Below, piece after piece: positions 1,023 to 5,066 of a stretch of DNA of 44,661 nucleotides. The stretch is from Opitutales bacterium. GTDB taxonomy: Bacteria; Verrucomicrobiota; Verrucomicrobiia; Opitutales; JABSRG01. Below the pieces are notes generated by a model. That model worked only from the letters and a program-made list of their open reading frames with translations, did not search any database and was not told the origin of the DNA. The translations under genes and the position numbers were made by a program. The DNA lies in contig JBMYOQ010000033.1 in assembly GCA_049599475.1 (NCBI GenBank), positions 1 to 44,661 on the forward strand, in the 5' to 3' direction. Every line of letters begins with the position of its first letter. The first letter of the stretch is position 1.

Positions 1023-1094
1023 ATGACGATTATGAAATTCCACGCACAGCGAGATCAACATGAACCGAATACAATCGGAGGGTTCGCTATGTAG
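1023..1094 (+). CDS. Leader peptide 1, MTIMKFHAQRDQHEPNTIGGFAM (alternative start 1032)
   Basis: Hand-translated; His/Gln/Arg/Asp/Glu/Pro block matches six downstream tRNAs; 3' end overlaps antiterminator arm. Confidence 0.8.
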   Translation: MTIMKFHAQRDQHEPNTIGGFAM

Positions 1095-1131
1095 TGGTAT
1101 TAAGCACGCTTTATCGCTATATAGAGCCCTC
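1078..1131 (+). promoter_or_regulatory. Antiterminator hairpin of attenuator 1
   Basis: GAGGGTTC/GAGCCCTC plus TATGTAGTGGTA/TATCGCTATATA; sequesters 5' arm of the terminator. Confidence 0.75.
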
Positions 1132-1155
1132 AGAGTAATGTCTGGGGGCTTTTTT
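1123..1155 (+). terminator. Intrinsic terminator of attenuator 1
   Basis: AGAGCCCTCAGA-GTAATG-TCTGGGGGCTTT followed by T run, 12 nt before tRNA-Pro. Confidence 0.85.
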
Positions 1156-1167
1156 GGCGTTTACATA

Positions 1168-1239
1168 CAGGGATTGGCAGACAAGTGATGCACTCCGTTT
1201 GGGGCGGAGACTAAGGGGGAGCGTTACCCTCATTCCTGA
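1168..1239 (+). tRNA. tRNA-Pro(TGG), atypical T-loop AGCGTTA, no complete encoded CCA
   Basis: Acceptor CAGGGAT/ATTCCTG; anticodon arm CTCCG-TTTGGGG-CGGAG. Confidence 0.8.
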
Positions 1240-1242
1240 CAT

Positions 1243-1317
1243 CCCTCATTAGTGAACTGGCTATCATACCGCTCTGTCGAAGCGGAGTAGCGGGGTCGGT
1301 ACCCGCATGGGGGGCCA
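1243..1317 (+). tRNA. tRNA-Asp(GTC), atypical T-loop GTCGGTA
   Basis: CCCTCAT/ATGGGGG, G73, CCA; CCGCT-CTGTCGA-AGCGG. Confidence 0.85.
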
Positions 1318-1326
1318 CTTTAACAA

Positions 1327-1401
1327 GGCGCTATAGTGTAACGGATAGCACAGGAGGTTTTCAGTCTTCTAGTCGGGGTTCGAGTCCCCGTAGCGTCACC
1401 A
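1327..1401 (+). tRNA. tRNA-Glu(TTC)
   Basis: GGCGCTA/TAGCGTC; GGAGG-TTTTCAG-TCTTC; TTCGAGT loop; CCA. Confidence 0.9.
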
Positions 1402-1402
1402 T

Positions 1403-1520
1403 GCGAGTATAGTGTAATGGAAGCACGTCTGAATACGAATCAGTTAGTTAAGGTGATCCGGTTGCCCGTAGTGCCCCGGTCATGTCGCTTTGCTCGGAAC
1501 GAGTCCTTATATTCGCACCA
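1403..1520 (+). tRNA. tRNA-Arg(ACG) with 45-nt insertion in T-loop
   Basis: GCGAGTA/TATTCGC; CTGA-ATACGAA-TCAG; T-stem TAAGG/CCTTA flanks insertion; CCA. Confidence 0.8.
1455..1499 (+). repeat. T-loop insertion element copy 1 (45 nt)
   Basis: GATCCGGTT-GCCCGTAGTGC-CCCGGTCATGTC-GCTTTGC-TCGGAA; homologous to 2164-2208 and 3920-3964. Confidence 0.9.
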
Positions 1521-1536
1521 TTTTTGTAATACAGAA

Positions 1537-1610
1537 TGCCATGTAGTTTAACGGTAAAACATCGGGCTTTGAACCCGAGCTTGGAGGTTCGATCCCTTCC
1601 GTGGCATCCA
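1537..1610 (+). tRNA. tRNA-Gln(TTG)
   Basis: TGCCATG/CGTGGCA; TCGGG-CTTTGAA-CCCGA; CCA. Confidence 0.9.
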
Positions 1611-1611
1611 T

Positions 1612-1688
1612 GCGTCGACTAGCTTAACAGGCCAAAGTACCGGATTGTGACTCCGGGGATCCGAGTTCGAGTCTCGGGCGGCGAACCA
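1612..1688 (+). tRNA. tRNA-His(GTG), irregular acceptor stem
   Basis: CCGGA-TTGTGAC-TCCGG; T-arm CCGAG-TTCGAGT-CTCGG; acceptor pairs only with a bulge; CCA. Confidence 0.75.
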
Positions 1689-1753
1689 TTTAATTTCGAT
1701 AAAATAACAAAACAGACTGGACAACATAAGTAATATCTATAGTAATACAAACC

Positions 1754-1801
1754 ATGGAAAGAAATTTTACAGCAATGATTAAAGGAGATGCCACCACATA
1801 G
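1754..1801 (+). CDS. Leader peptide 2, MERNFTAMIKGDATT
   Basis: Hand-translated; NFTAMIKG block matches cluster-2 tRNAs; stop codon abuts antiterminator arm. Confidence 0.8.
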   Translation: MERNFTAMIKGDATT

Positions 1802-1802
1802 G

Positions 1803-1851
1803 GGGAGCCCGGTTGTCTGTATTCTTTTTTATACACTTTCGGAAGGCTCCC
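1803..1851 (+). promoter_or_regulatory. Antiterminator hairpin of attenuator 2
   Basis: GGGAGCC (1803-1809) pairs with GGCTCCC (1845-1851); inner TGTAT/ATACA. Confidence 0.7.
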
Positions 1852-1873
1852 AATTCATTTGGGGGCCTTTTTT
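1843..1873 (+). terminator. Intrinsic terminator of attenuator 2
   Basis: AAGGCTCCCAA-TTCAT-TTGGGGGCCTT-TTTT. Confidence 0.85.
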
Positions 1874-1884
1874 GTTCTTTAATA
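1873..1884 (+). promoter_or_regulatory. boxA-like element
   Basis: TGTTCTTTAATA resembles rrn boxA TGCTCTTTAACA. Confidence 0.5.
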
Positions 1885-1885
1885 T

Positions 1886-1958
1886 GGCGGGTAGGTCTGG
1901 TCGACCGAGTGAGTCTCATACGCTCATCAGCGCGGTTCAAATCCGCGACCTGCTTCCA
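1886..1958 (+). tRNA. tRNA-Met(CAT), probably elongator; short D-arm
   Basis: GGCGGGT/ACCTGCT; TGAGT-CTCATAC-GCTCA; lacks the three G-C pairs of initiator tRNA; CCA. Confidence 0.75.
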
Positions 1959-1965
1959 GTTTAAT

Positions 1966-2104
1966 GGGGCAGATTAGATTCGATCCTTATCGGCAAGATA
2001 GGGAGACGACGGTGCGCGGAAGGAGCAGAGCGACTGTAGATGGGACGCCTTATAGTGGTCGCTCTGCGATGAGCTTTAGCTCACCATTCTCGCAGGCTCC
2101 ACCA
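1966..2104 (+). ncRNA. Ala-identity tRNA-like RNA resembling a tmRNA tRNA-like domain without mRNA domain
   Basis: GGGGC...GCTCC-A-CCA with G3:U70; GATTCGA motif in place of D-arm; stem TCCTTATC/GATAGGGA; no anticodon arm. Confidence 0.65.
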
Positions 2105-2109
2105 TTTTG

Positions 2110-2230
2110 TGAGGATTAGCTTAGTGGCTAAAGCGGGTGTCTTACAAACATCTGATCGCAGGTGGTCCGGTTACGCTTTGCGTCCCGGTCTTGTCGTTAC
2201 ATTCGGAACGAAGTCCTGCTTCCTCGACCA
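2110..2230 (+). tRNA. tRNA-Val(TAC) with 45-nt insertion in T-loop
   Basis: GGTGT-CTTACAA-ACATC; T-stem GCAGG/CCTGC flanks insertion; CCA. Confidence 0.8.
2164..2208 (+). repeat. T-loop insertion element copy 2 (45 nt)
   Basis: GGTCCGGTT-ACGCTTTGCGT-CCCGGTCTTGTC-GTTACAT-TCGGAA. Confidence 0.9.
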
Positions 2231-2231
2231 C

Positions 2232-2306
2232 TGGCGTGTAGCACAATGGCAGTGCAGCTCCCTGTTAAGGAGACGGTTACTGGTTCGAATCCAGTCATGC
2301 CAGCCA
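2232..2306 (+). tRNA. tRNA-Asn(GTT)
   Basis: TGGCGTG/CATGCCA, G73; CTCC-CTGTTAA-GGAG; CCA. Confidence 0.9.
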
Positions 2307-2311
2307 ATTTC

Positions 2312-2385
2312 CCTTTCGTAGCTCAATGGTAGAGCTAGTGGCTGATAACCGCTCGATCTAGGTTCAATTCCTGGCGAAAGGACCA
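2312..2385 (+). tRNA. tRNA-Ile(GAT)
   Basis: CCTTTCG/CGAAAGG; AGTGG-CTGATAA-CCGCT; CCA. Confidence 0.9.
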
Positions 2386-2390
2386 TTTCA

Positions 2391-2466
2391 GGTAACTGCG
2401 TAGGTCTAGTGATTACGCTCGGTTGAAGCCCGAGAGAACTTGGTGCAATCCCAAGAGTTGCCACCA
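2391..2466 (+). tRNA. tRNA-Phe(GAA), atypical T-loop TGCAATC
   Basis: GGTAACT/AGTTGCC; CTCGG-TTGAAGC-CCGAG; CCA. Confidence 0.85.
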
Positions 2467-2472
2467 TTTGTT

Positions 2473-2547
2473 GGGTGCTTCGTATAACGGCTATTACACC
2501 CGGTTTTTACCCGGATTATTGGGGTTCGATTCCCTAAGCGCCCACCA
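2473..2547 (+). tRNA. tRNA-Lys(TTT)
   Basis: GGGTGCT/AGCGCCC; CCGG-TTTTTAC-CCGG; CCA. Confidence 0.9.
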
Positions 2548-2551
2548 TTTC

Positions 2552-2627
2552 GCGAGAGTAGCTCAATTGGCAGAGCGCCTTCCTTCCAAGTAGGTGGTTG
2601 CGGGTTCGATTCCCGTCTCTCGTTCCA
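2552..2627 (+). tRNA. tRNA-Gly(TCC)
   Basis: GCGAGAG/CTCTCGT, U73; loop CTTCCAA; CCA. Confidence 0.9.
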
Positions 2628-2628
2628 T

Positions 2629-2704
2629 TCTCCCATTGTTCTAATTGGCAAAACGGCTGTCTTGTAAACAGCTTTTCTTGGTTCGAATCCGAGTGGGAGA
2701 TCCA
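2629..2704 (+). tRNA. tRNA-Thr(TGT)
   Basis: TCTCCCA/TGGGAGA; GCTGT-CTTGTAA-ACAGC; CCA. Confidence 0.9.
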
Positions 2705-2733
2705 GTTTACAGGAGGGGTAGTTTCGATTGTTT

Positions 2734-3609
2734 CTAGTTGAGAAACAAATCAAAAGAAGGAGGCAAATACTGATGAAGATTTTTTTTGTTACTATTGTAA
2801 GACTTCGGGTTGAAAGTTTGCTTCGGAAACGAGTTCCGAAGAATATTAACTATTTTGCCGGCCATGATAGCTGAGGCATCACTCCGAGCGTAAATGATGG
2901 ATCCATCTTCCCAATTACTTTGCCCGATCTTGTTCAATTTGACATCACTCCCGTGTTTAGCCAGCACCTCTTGAATTTCATGCGCTAACTTCTCTTTTCC
3001 TTTTGAATAAGATATTCTAACTTTCGACTTGGTTAGTTCGGGAGTTGGCGTGACAGATTTGAAAGGAGTAACGGTGTCACTCTTGTTAGATGCTATCCGA
3101 ATAGTTACGGTTTCAGACCTGCCGCTATAGGGACTACTACTAAAAACCCCAAAAGAAGTTTCTATTGGGACGTAGTTCGAGCTTTCAGGCGATCCAGTAT
3201 AATCAAATTTACCTTTAGGATTAACGAGAAAAGATCTCATGCGCTTCCCTTGCACATTTGAAACTGGCGAGGTGTATTTCACGTAGCCACCTCTCTTATG
3301 GAATGCTATATATAATTCGTCTGCTCCGTGAATAGTGGTCACGTAGGTAGAGAGCAATGCTCCAGGATCGAGCTTATACCACCCGCTCACAACTGGATCT
3401 CCAAACCCCACTCCAAAGCTATTTTTGAAGTTTTTTCCGAACATTCCCTTATACTCTAAATCGACGAGGGCGTAATAAACAGTTTCGTTCCCGGAATTTG
3501 TGATTCTAACCGTGATTTCACTTTCTGCGAAGATACTTGCAGACGATATTGCGAAAGTCGCAATAAACCATTTTAATGATCTGTGCATTAAAACATCCAA
3601 GCACATCAT
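2734..3609 (-). CDS. Secreted hypothetical protein (DUF1036-like N-terminus, possible LytR_C-like C-terminus)
   Basis: 291-aa ORF, signal-peptide-like N-terminus, SGWYKLDPG motif; domain calls by eye only. Confidence 0.65.
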   Translation of the reverse strand: MMCLDVLMHRSLKWFIATFAISSASIFAESEITVRITNSGNETVYYALVDLEYKGMFGKNFKNSFGVGFGDPVVSGWYKLDPGALLSTYVTTIHGADELYIAFHKRGGYVKYTSPVSNVQGKRMRSFLVNPKGKFDYTGSPESSNYVPIETSFGVFSSSPYSGRSETVTIRIASNKSDTVTPFKSVTPTPELTKSKVRISYSKGKEKLAHEIQEVLAKHGSDVKLNKIGQSNWEDGSIIYARSDASAIMAGKIVNILRNSFPKQTFNPKSYNSNKKNLHQYLPPSFDLFLN

Positions 3610-3653
3610 AAGCCTATACTGTGAAAAAAGGAATCGGCCTTACAAAAAATCGG

Positions 3654-3685
3654 TTGACACAACATCGCCTAACGGTGATTCTAAT
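3654..3685 (+). promoter_or_regulatory. Putative sigma70-type promoter for tRNA cluster 3
   Basis: Perfect TTGACA at 3654-3659; weak -10 candidates GATTCT (17 bp spacer) or TCTAAT just before leader ATG 3691. Confidence 0.5.
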
Positions 3686-3690
3686 CAATA

Positions 3691-3765
3691 ATGAATTATT
3701 TATGCATACTCCTCAGTTGGTCGCTGTCCGCATGGCGGAAGGCTAGCTCGATTGTGCATATGTAG
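3691..3765 (+). CDS. Leader peptide 3, MNYLCILLSWSLSAWRKASSIVHM
   Basis: Codons TAT TTA TGC ATA CTC CTC AGT TGG TCG CTG TCC correspond to all eight cluster-3 tRNAs. Confidence 0.85.
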   Translation: MNYLCILLSWSLSAWRKASSIVHM

Positions 3766-3798
3766 TTCCTGCATATATACACTTTCTGATTAGCCTTC
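3738..3798 (+). promoter_or_regulatory. Antiterminator hairpin of attenuator 3
   Basis: GAAGGCTAG/TTAGCCTTC plus GTGCATATGTAG/CTGCATATATAC. Confidence 0.75.
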
Positions 3799-3821
3799 GG
3801 TCGCAAGCCGAGGGCTTTTTT
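3792..3821 (+). terminator. Intrinsic terminator of attenuator 3
   Basis: AGCCTTCGGT-CGCAA-GCCGAGGGCT-TTTTT. Confidence 0.85.
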
Positions 3822-3833
3822 GTGTCCTAATTT

Positions 3834-3845
3834 TGTTCTTACATA
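3834..3845 (+). promoter_or_regulatory. boxA-like element
   Basis: TGTTCTTACATA, same position relative to the first tRNA as 1873-1884. Confidence 0.4.
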
Positions 3846-3846
3846 T

Positions 3847-3985
3847 GGAGGGTTGACCCGAGATCCGGCCTGGCGGGAGCCGTCTTGAAAACGGTTGGGG
3901 TTTAACAGCCTCTATGGGTGGTCCGGTTGGGCTTCGCACCCCGGTCATGTCGCTTCGCTCGGAACGAGACCCATACCCTCTACCA
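3847..3985 (+). tRNA. tRNA-Ser(TGA) with 45-nt insertion in T-loop
   Basis: GGAGGGT/ACCCTCT; GCCGT-CTTGAAA-ACGGT; long variable arm; T-stem ATGGG/CCCAT flanks insertion; CCA. Confidence 0.8.
3920..3964 (+). repeat. T-loop insertion element copy 3 (45 nt)
   Basis: GGTCCGGTT-GGGCTTCGCAC-CCCGGTCATGTC-GCTTCGC-TCGGAA. Confidence 0.9.
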
Positions 3986-3996
3986 TTTTATATATT

Positions 3997-4071
3997 ATCT
4001 CAGTGTTGTAATGGCTGCATATCGGTCTCCAAAACCGTATGGTCTAGGTTCAAGTCCTAGCTGAGATGCCA
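3997..4071 (+). tRNA. tRNA-Trp(CCA)
   Basis: ATCTCAG/CTGAGAT, G73; CGGT-CTCCAAA-ACCG; CCA. Confidence 0.9.
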
Positions 4072-4078
4072 TTTATGT

Positions 4079-4155
4079 GGACGTGTATCCCAATCGGAAG
4101 AGGAGTCTGTCTTAGAAACAGAATGTTGGGGGTTCGAATCCCTCCACGTCTACCA
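4079..4155 (+). tRNA. tRNA-Leu(TAG), short variable loop
   Basis: GGACGTG/CACGTCT; TCTGT-CTTAGAA-ACAGA; variable loop ATGTT; CCA. Confidence 0.85.
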
Positions 4156-4156
4156 T

Positions 4157-4231
4157 GGATCGATAGTGAAATCGGCATCACGCTCGGCTGTAACCCGACA
4201 ATTCCAGGTTCAAGTCCTGGTCGATCCACCA
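4157..4231 (+). tRNA. tRNA-Tyr(GTA), short variable loop
   Basis: GGATCGA/TCGATCC; TCGG-CTGTAAC-CCGA; CCA. Confidence 0.85.
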
Positions 4232-4235
4232 TTTT

Positions 4236-4309
4236 TACTGCGTGGCCGAGAGGCAAGGCAGGGGTCTGCAAAACCCCCTACGCGGGTTCGATTCCCGCCG
4301 CAGTATCCA
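4236..4309 (+). tRNA. tRNA-Cys(GCA)
   Basis: TACTGCG/CGCAGTA, U73; GGGGT-CTGCAAA-ACCCC; CCA. Confidence 0.9.
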
Positions 4310-4311
4310 TT

Positions 4312-4448
4312 TTGAATTCGATGTGTAGTCACCTGCTTTAGCTCGGTGAGATAAAAATTCGTATAATACGAATTTCTTGTTTGGTGGGCGCTTTGCCTTC
4401 TCGCGCGGTCAGGGTTCCGAGCCGTTACAAGAAATACACGCGAAACAA
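4312..4448 (+). ncRNA. Putative structured ncRNA of unknown class within tRNA cluster 3
   Basis: Closing stem 4317-4327/4435-4444, several internal stems; far longer than other inter-tRNA spacers (at most ~16 nt). Confidence 0.5.
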
Positions 4449-4467
4449 TTGCAGTGAAAAGATTTCA

Positions 4468-4544
4468 GGATGTGTAGGCTAATCGGTAAAGCCAGCCAGT
4501 TTAAGCCTGGCTGATTGCCCGTTCGAGTCGGGCCACATCCACCA
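4468..4544 (+). tRNA. tRNA-Leu(TAA), short variable loop
   Basis: GGATGTG/CACATCC; GCCAG-TTTAAGC-CTGGC; variable loop TGATT; CCA. Confidence 0.85.
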
Positions 4545-4545
4545 G

Positions 4546-4638
4546 GGAGAGTAGGGCCTGCTGTGGTAGCGGACGGGGATTGCTAATCCTTCGCTGGTCT
4601 TCAAAAGCCAGTCGGTTCGACTCCGATACTCTCTTCCA
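4546..4638 (+). tRNA. tRNA-Ser(GCT)
   Basis: GGAGAGT/ACTCTCT; GGGGA-TTGCTAA-TCCTT; long variable arm; CCA. Confidence 0.85.
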
Positions 4639-4648
4639 TTTAATAGAG

Positions 4649-4723
4649 GGACCTGTAGCTTATTGGTAAAAGCGGGGCGCTCATAACGCCCGGAACTGAG
4701 TTCGATTCCCAGCGGGTCTACCA
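4649..4723 (+). tRNA. tRNA(CAT), probably Ile2 (lysidine-modified)
   Basis: GGACCTG/CGGGTCT; GGGCG-CTCATAA-CGCCC; Ile2 identity inferred from ATA codon in leader 3. Confidence 0.75.
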
Positions 4724-4875: not shown

Positions 4876-4941
4876 CTAGACGGTTTCTCGAAAGTGTGGG
4901 TTTACCTGAATAAACGAAAACACTTTTGAAAAACCGCCTAG
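4876..4941. repeat. Imperfect 22-bp inverted repeat
   Basis: CTAGACGGTTTCTCGAAAGTGT ... ACACTTTTGAAAAACCGCCTAG. Confidence 0.6.
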
Positions 4942-5066
4942 AATCGAAACCACAGGATCACTAGGCAAGTGGTTTTAAGCTTTTTCATGATCCCCTAATA
5001 AACGAAAACAATTGAGCGGTAACGTATGAGAGTTTCTATAGCCTCTAGGAATGTAGTGCTATTAAA

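Follow-up and report, generated by a model that had tools for sequence, protein, structure and literature searches.

A cluster of 22 same-strand tRNA genes extends across positions 1170-4723 of the window, which is a whole contig (G000:C33; 44,661 nt) of the 4.68-Mb genome of a marine Opitutales bacterium. The array is divided into three blocks, each preceded by a short ORF and a terminator, and this raises the question of what the ORF ahead of the third block (leader 3) might sense, and how finely. A sequence-only reading had proposed that its codons match the downstream tRNAs at the level of anticodons, and so report on tRNA species rather than on amino-acid supply. The reading favoured here, given a probability of about 0.7, is that leader 3 is a ribosome-coupled transcription attenuator that controls the third block of a tRNA array gained by horizontal transfer, with slow decoding as its signal and the codon box as its resolution.

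The tRNA array and its setting

ARAGORN called 17 of the 22 array tRNAs by default, and those for Pro and Phe were added at a lower threshold. The remaining three (Arg-ACG, Val-TAC and Ser-TGA) have T-loops interrupted by a repeat, and were identified by eye and by folding. The array is long, non-periodic, confined to one strand and supernumerary, with the core tRNA genes of the host located elsewhere, and so fits the description of an L-array. The housekeeping genes pfkB, hisF and rho adjoin it. Leader 1 (1023..1094, + strand) carries the run HAQRDQHEP and lies before a terminator at 1125-1157 (+), ahead of block 1, the tRNAs of which are Pro, Asp, Glu, Arg, Gln and His. Leader 2 (MERNFTAMIKGDATT; 1754..1801, +) lies before a terminator at 1841-1876 (+), ahead of block 2, with tRNAs for Met, Val, Asn, Ile (GAT), Phe, Lys, Gly and Thr. 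Block 3 consists of eight genes on the + strand: tRNA-Ser(TGA) at 3847..3985, tRNA-Trp(CCA) at 3997..4071, tRNA-Leu(TAG) at 4079..4155, tRNA-Tyr(GTA) at 4157..4231, tRNA-Cys(GCA) at 4236..4309, tRNA-Leu(TAA) at 4468..4544, tRNA-Ser(GCT) at 4546..4638 and a tRNA with a CAT anticodon at 4649..4723. The Tyr and both Leu tRNAs have short variable arms, and the function of the Ser(TGA) gene, which is invisible to ARAGORN by default, is uncertain.

Leader 2 has no Val codon despite the presence of Val-TAC (2111-2230) in block 2, and this is the sole array tRNA whose own leader offers no codon for it. Ala is the only amino acid absent from the 22-gene array, and a GCA codon is found within the matched run of leader 2. 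Block 2 also includes a 139-nt structured RNA (1966-2104) with an Ala/tmRNA-type acceptor (G3-U70, CCA end; fold z -3.1), for which Rfam gave nothing and no counterpart was seen among the fetched loci. Both array Ser genes (3847-3985 and 4546-4638) have G1-T72, and their discriminators are A73 and T73, not the G73 that is usual in Ser tRNAs. The 155-nt spacer between the Cys and Leu-TAA genes (4312-4466) folds as a long helix (z -1.8) and had no counterpart among the fetched loci. Blocks 2 and 3 are separated by a gene on the - strand (2734-3609), divergent from leader 3, that encodes an orphan protein of 284-291 aa with a hydrophobic N-terminus. It belongs to no Pfam, NCBIfam or PHROG family and matches only itself among proteins of near length, while its structural likeness to DUF1036 and LytR_C clusters in the Atlas is weak and below the bar for naming.

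Multicopy repeats of the host, at 723-902, 1-59 and 4887-4996, bracket the array. A contig of run X1, which may be the source of the window, is continuous from 873 through the array into pfkB, hisF and rho, and run X2, from a separate study, gave identical pieces over 2954-3775 and 3780-4206 with zero variation. One X2 contig links 54 to 4888, and is probably a further copy of the flanking repeat. The RNA runs X3 and X4 gave contig pieces only, a small share that includes bits of the array, in which strand, start and level are unreadable.

Leader 3 and its predicted switch

Leader 3 is an ORF of 24 codons (MNYLCILLSWSLSAWRKASSIVHM; 3691..3765, +) that reads ATG AAT TAT TTA TGC ATA CTC CTC AGT TGG TCG CTG TCC GCA TGG ... 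TAG, and all of the codons named in the sequence-only reading are present. Codons 3-13 (3697..3729, +; Y L C I L L S W S L S) form the putative sensing run, in which every codon (11/11) belongs to a codon box of the block-3 tRNAs. The block-3 box set takes up 0.23-0.25 of codons, giving a chance of ~1e-6 for such a run, and the sister leaders have no block-3-box codons at all (0/22 in leader 1 and 0/14 in leader 2). Each codon box served by block 3 is represented in the run by one to three codons. The distance from the stop codon to the terminator stem is 26 nt. An overlapping ORF, MHTPQLVAVRMAEG, was dismissed as a leader: 2 of its 13 residues match, and its stop is 45 nt before the stem.

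Downstream of the ORF is an intrinsic terminator (3792..3821, +), with a 10-bp stem (3792-3816; -16.1 kcal/mol) followed by a U tract. Folding places the 5' arm of a candidate antiterminator (region 2) at 3738..3746 (+), where it pairs with 3790-3798; this helix sits within a -27.6 kcal/mol fold and overlaps the 5' arm of the terminator. The fold of 3685-3830 is more stable than all 200 of 200 shuffled sequences (z -3.5), and the ribosome-free minimum-energy structure is a long hairpin across the ORF and terminator. Leader 3 thus displays a short ORF, cognate codons, and a terminator with a mutually exclusive antiterminator, the features expected of an attenuator.

The effect of a ribosome was modelled in two ways. 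In a truncated model, where 14 nt past the A site are masked and the transcript stops within the terminator loop, the 5' arm of the terminator is sequestered (0.82-1.0) when the A site is at codons 2-12, falling to 0.41 at codon 13 and to 0.12 or less from codon 14. The predicted switch at codons 12-14 coincides with the end of the matched run. Leader 1 likewise switches at the end of its run (codons 15-16), and leader 2 close to its stop. In the same model the 5' arm is sequestered (0.95) even without a ribosome. An equilibrium model with the full terminator is more restrictive: antitermination by leader 3 is confined to stalls at codons 5-10, with roughly even odds at codon 11, whereas at codons 2-4 (TAT and TTA among them) termination persists with a probability of 0.92-0.98, and leaders 1 and 2 never antiterminate. 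Since antitermination in the equilibrium model is limited to codons 5-10, TAT and TTA would be borderline sensors. In the models, it is the position of the ribosome over the regulatory codons that sets the RNA structure.

The upstream region has a perfect -35 candidate, TTGACA (3654..3659, +; 6/6). The best-spaced -10 candidate, GATTCT (3677..3682, +; spacing 17), matches at 3/6 positions and ends 8 nt 5' of the ATG, while an alternative, TCTAAT (3680-3685, +; spacer 20), ends 5 nt 5' of it. The earlier suggestion of a leaderless transcript was correct in placing the ATG 5-8 nt after the -10 candidates, but neither of these passes a consensus promoter scan, and for that reason a leaderless start is a reasonable guess only. 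A Shine-Dalgarno-like motif was not found upstream of leader 3; such motifs are poorly informative in this host, where 199 of 2278 first-ATG ORFs carry one against a background of 175 (crude starts). In the comparison leaders described below, the leaderless signature is weak overall, with a TATAAT-like hexamer 5-6 nt before the ATG in 8 of 55. Sigma70-like -35/-10 elements or a Bacteroidota-like TAnnTTTG box just before the ATG were noted by eye at L379, L639, L157, L262, L281, L378, L699 and L216. This suggests that leaderless starts recur among the leaders of the set. For leader 3, a leaderless transcript starting at or just before the ATG is plausible.

These elements suggest the following course of events. 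Transcription would probably begin at or just before the ATG. If codons 3-13 are read quickly, the ribosome would move on to cover 3738-3746, the terminator would form, and no block-3 tRNAs would be made. If the ribosome lingers on a codon of the run, 3738-3746 would be free to pair with 3790-3798, and the polymerase could enter the eight tRNA genes. The signal would be slow decoding, whatever the cause, and according to the models the block-3 tRNAs are probably made only when ribosomes decode the leader codons slowly.

To place the window in context, loci were gathered by five pattern scans of viral contigs and one of metagenome contigs, yielding 670, and at least three same-strand tRNAs were present in 366 of 671 loci with that of the window included. 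Leaders were chosen by geometry alone, as ATG ORFs of 12-50 codons whose stop is followed after 17-40 nt by a terminator at least as stable as -11 kcal/mol, with a tRNA within 200 nt; where there were several, the longest was taken. Of 136 candidate ORFs, with redundant loci counted, 64 have a stop-to-terminator gap of 20-30 nt, where the distribution peaks. The 75 leaders fell into 58 clusters at 50% peptide identity, three from the window and 55 others, and one leader per cluster was used. Likely wrong picks (e.g., L634 and one in L202) were retained, and related phages are still present in the set, so that p-values are overstated. In the 36 other leaders with blocks of 2-12 amino acids, 523 of 992 codons match the amino acids of their block, compared with 339 +/- 19 when permuted (maximum of 410 in 20,000 permutations), and the leaders cover 208 of 226 tRNA species at the box level (143 permuted). 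The model gave a switch in 43 of 58 real leaders versus 51 of 116 shuffled controls, and codon matches are concentrated before the modelled switch (238/334) relative to after it (62/188).

Resolution of the codon match and the two CAT tRNAs

How far below the amino acid the match extends is decided by synonymous codons. The sequence-only reading took the fact that leader 3 draws on both boxes of Leu and of Ser as a sign of anticodon-level matching, but block 3 holds both boxes of each, so that any Leu or Ser codon matches, and the chance of all four boxes being used is P 0.48-0.56. That the leader mirrors the block-3 tRNAs is borne out by the box match; its Leu/Ser usage is no better than chance. 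Three of the 11 run codons (CTC, CTC and TCC) would not be read by the U34 tRNAs of the array under standard wobble, and are better suited to the Leu-GAG and Ser-GGA tRNAs of the host. The run does contain a standard-wobble codon for each of the eight block-3 tRNAs, with a chance, given the peptide, of 0.028 under host codon usage or 0.075 under phage-like usage, but nearly all of this joint improbability is supplied by a single ATA (3706-3708). ATA makes up 0.13 of the Ile codons of the host and 0.33 of those in phage-like DNA. It is the only informative codon of leader 3 for isoacceptor matching. Within the window, Ile is encoded by ATT in leader 2, whose block has Ile-GAT, and by ATA in the run of leader 3, whose block has the putative tRNA-Ile2.

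The comparison set gives a broader view. A permutation across all blocks is confounded by two-box blocks and was set aside in favour of a single-box test, in which the 55 other leaders were scored where their block has just one box of an amino acid. Overall, 107 of 171 codons fall in the box present, compared with 85.7 when permuted (p=0.0009). The signal comes from Arg (29/38, p=0.0003) and Ile (29/43 for all codons, p=0.07; 20/24, p=0.02, in a core zone that starts at codon 8 and ends six codons before the stop), and neither Leu (28/45, p=0.10) nor Ser (21/45, p=0.53) shows a box signal. Adding 23 lower-threshold tRNA calls, with CAT ones excluded, gave a total of 106/166 (p=0.0005), with Ser at 19/39 (p=0.42). 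The Ser genes that had been missed at the higher ARAGORN threshold, in L614, L379, L216, L699 and L387, are in the box that the leader codons called for. Where the block has an Ile2-type gene, 12 of 13 leaders include ATA, against 3 of 5 where it has Ile-TAT and 16 of 37 where it has neither; between the Ile2-type and no-reader leaders this gives p=0.003, where the Ile2 calls were manual, from acceptor stems, and made after viewing the leaders. An AAC ATA pair occurs inside the first 10 codons of 10 of the 55 leaders.

At the third base the leaders show no preference (0.61 vs 0.62), and Watson-Crick matching is at or below chance both in the window (11/29, with 11.0 expected) and in the other leaders (351/923, with 378.6 expected). 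Standard-wobble matches in the three window leaders number 13 of 18, with 8.9 expected (z=2.05). Coding-region codon usage as a null for isoacceptors gave a wobble z of 6, and was dropped as inflated because leaders favour A/G-ending codons even when there is no tRNA for that box.

These results bear on two other explanations. In the first, leader 3 is a strict anticodon-level sensor in which each codon fits one array tRNA and reports its abundance as a species, not amino-acid supply. The wobble coverage of all eight tRNAs, the wobble excess in the window and the fact that 5 of 15 apparent single-box Ser blocks gained a leader-called Ser gene at lower threshold are points in its favour, but the dependence of that coverage on one ATA, the better fit of CTC, CTC and TCC to host tRNAs and the missing third-base signal make it rather improbable. 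In addition, amino-acid starvation slows the same codons, and attenuation cannot separate the two causes (as treated in part of PMC1183508). In the second, leader 3 would sense amino-acid starvation or general translation stress by a match at the amino-acid level, its synonymous choices being dictated by AT content and RNA structure. The absence of a box signal for Leu and Ser would agree with this, as would the 16 of 37 leaders that use ATA with no reader for it, often within an AT-rich start. Translation-blocking antibiotics induce the Anabaena array (PMC10272220, in part), and E. coli tRNA is degraded under amino-acid starvation (PMC5314770, in part). Against it, the choice of Arg and Ile boxes follows the tRNA content of the block, which amino-acid matching would not predict, the controlled block has no amino-acid biosynthesis genes, and a mixed run that gives each amino acid only one or two codons would be rather insensitive to amino-acid limitation by the account in PMC1183508; a pure starvation or stress sensor is quite unlikely. 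For leader 3, the claim of anticodon-level matching goes too far. The sequences argue for sensing at the level of the codon box (ATA vs ATY, CGN vs AGR), for Arg and Ile only, and not of the exact anticodon, which is the resolution adopted in the attenuator reading.

The sequence-only reading also predicted, from the codon match, that of the two CAT tRNAs of the array the one at 4649 is lysidine-modified Ile2 and the one at 1886 is Met. Tabulated identity rules (PMC1635315, in part) give A3/G3 and T70/C70 as marks of Ile, often with C4-G69 and C5-G68, and C3-G70 as the mark of Met, and add that the E. coli TilS determinants C4-G69 and C5-G68 are not universal. The block-3 gene (4649-4723) has A3-T70, C4-G69, C5-G68, A73 and the anticodon loop CTCATAA, and lacks the Met pair C3-G70. 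It is more similar to the host Ile2-type gene (49.5), which itself has G4-C69, than to the host Met-type gene (39.0), and in a set of 248 CAT genes, drawn from the host and the fetched loci, 23 of its 30 nearest neighbours are without C3-G70. A tilS gene is present in the host (TIGR02432 above cut-off at G000:C4, 149 bits). Unlike a typical bacterial tRNA-Ile2 gene, the one at 4649 is an additional, divergent copy carried by a mobile array, and it has G29-C41 where the Ile tRNAs of E. coli have C29-G41, which is one of their identity elements.

The other CAT tRNA (1886..1958, +), the first gene of block 2, has C3-G70, G4-T69, G1-T72, T73 and a compact D-arm, and none of the Ile2 marks. In the same set of 248 genes, 23 of its 30 nearest neighbours carry C3-G70, and several are initiator-like. 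Its fold is compact throughout, with one base between acceptor and D stem, a 5-nt D loop, a 6-bp anticodon stem and a 3-nt variable loop, a layout that resembles tRNA-Pyl. ARAGORN found no core initiator tRNA in the assembly. By sequence, both predictions hold: 4649 is of Ile2 type and 1886 of Met class. The Ile2 assignment stands independently of the leader, since it comes from the acceptor-stem marks, the nearest neighbours and tilS, while ATA alone contributes a likelihood ratio of only about two-fold.

Distribution, purpose and known systems

DNA searches of 40 relatives, a phage collection and a plasmid collection gave only single-tRNA matches to the array. It was not found in six of six family genomes (E 1e-11), nor within 3 kb downstream of pfkB in a genome of the same genus, which shares 93% (hisF) and 81% (pfkB) identity with the host but has other genes 3' of pfkB. 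A pattern based on the short-arm Leu-TAG gene matched 3 of 400 other genomes of the order, with no homolog of the array; the matches were to a contig with a phage-like array (G399), tRNA fragments (G018) and non-tRNA sequence (G177), all without a recognisable codon-matched leader. As far as these searches reach, the distribution appears patchy, consistent with the horizontal transfer criterion for L-arrays.

The hairpin repeat of 45-50 nt that interrupts T-loops is found in Arg-ACG (1455-1500), Val-TAC (2164-2210) and Ser-TGA (3920-3964, 45 nt). It has six copies in the genome at one mismatch or fewer and is widespread in Opitutia genomes, where an intact tRNA gene is often followed by the repeat and then directly by a second copy of the tRNA 3' end; the array copies have no intact tRNA copy ahead of them. 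When used as a marker for arrays, the repeat yielded scattered Opitutia repeats and unrelated coding matches. The interruption of the Ser-TGA gene means that the array may be in decay. A further explanation is that the locus is a relic, a phage-derived cassette of attenuators and tRNAs that was caught in the chromosome and is now silent or decaying. The absence of the array from the family genomes and from the pfkB neighborhood of the same-genus genome, the Opitutia repeat in three array tRNAs, the orphan gene between blocks 2 and 3 and the weak -10 all point this way, but the leaders, terminators and antiterminator arms are intact at all three blocks, 19 of 22 tRNA genes are uninterrupted and the TTGACA -35 is perfect, and a silent relic is considered unlikely. 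Such an origin would also leave the built-in working of the device unchanged.

As for the purpose of the attenuator, it is likely to be a negative feedback by which lost or damaged tRNA species are replaced. This is suggested by the nature of the product, which is tRNA, by the tracking of tRNA content by box choice, and by the mixed run. Synonymous-codon bias is also seen in the leaders of amino-acid operons, and leaders in which regulatory codons are a small fraction are less sensitive (both from PMC1183508, in part). A mixed run should thus respond best to long stalls, when a whole tRNA species is lost, or to global slowing; as an attenuator reads decoding speed only, loss of tRNA would be indistinguishable from starvation. 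A wider proposal, put forward tentatively and at somewhat less than even odds, is that the array is a phage-type, self-monitoring backup set of tRNAs, in which three box-level attenuators share out nearly all of the code and only the failing block is switched on. If so, the triggers could include anticodon-nuclease cleavage during phage attack or loss of lysidine modification, and tRNA genes that are ambiguous or were missed could be identified from the leader codons, in the way that ATA points to Ile2 in block 3.

Arrays of tRNA genes are common in phages and bacteria, and their triggers are known in few cases, such as TrcR in Anabaena. An attenuator of the trp style whose leader is composed of the codons read by its own tRNAs would let tRNA supply feed back directly on itself, and offers a simple reporter for the purpose of an array, be it replacement of cleaved tRNAs, starvation or general translation stress. 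Matching at the box level provides an independent route to annotating CAT tRNAs and to finding tRNA genes missed by scans. The presence of a copy beside housekeeping genes suggests that cells, like phages, can keep such a device.

Among known attenuators, thrL and ilvL are the multivalent leader peptides of amino-acid operons. Leader 3 resembles these and the other enterobacterial leaders (trpL, hisL, leuL and pheL) in having a short ORF, regulatory codons before an antiterminator, a mutually exclusive terminator, and a decision set by where the ribosome stands (PMC1183508, in part). It differs in controlling tRNA genes only, not enzymes or synthetases, and, unlike the tandem runs of amino-acid leaders, it samples five amino acids and ATA-Ile, for eight tRNAs, with one to three codons per box. 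Rfam leader models gave no match to leader 3 at E values up to 10, while leader 1 and leader 2 scored below threshold with His_leader (21.8 of 49 bits) and Phe_leader (26.1 of 55 bits), respectively. In the pheM-pheST system of E. coli, a leader peptide senses the supply of a charged tRNA and controls part of the translation machinery, but there it is one amino acid and a synthetase, compared with several amino acids and a tRNA product for leader 3. Mycobacterial leaderless polycysteine sORFs also act as attenuators in which a short ORF senses translation speed, and differ in having a single amino acid and protein-coding targets (bioRxiv 10.1101/834739, in part).

No published account of leader-peptide attenuation of tRNA arrays was found in searches of a library of openly available papers, and the words 'leader' and 'attenuation' are absent from the main texts of PMC8421152 and PMC10272220. 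The array itself is like the L-arrays, e.g., the trn operon of Anabaena PCC 7120, in being a long, same-strand, non-periodic and patchily distributed supernumerary set, and L-arrays have been reported in Verrucomicrobia among other phyla (PMC8421152, in part). The Anabaena array is repressed by a protein, TrcR (PMC10272220, in part), unlike the present array, where there are three blocks, each with its own codon-matched leader. The locus adds a chromosomal copy, the division of almost the entire code among three leaders, a limit of resolution that was put to the test, and a tRNA-Ile2 that is consistent with its leader.
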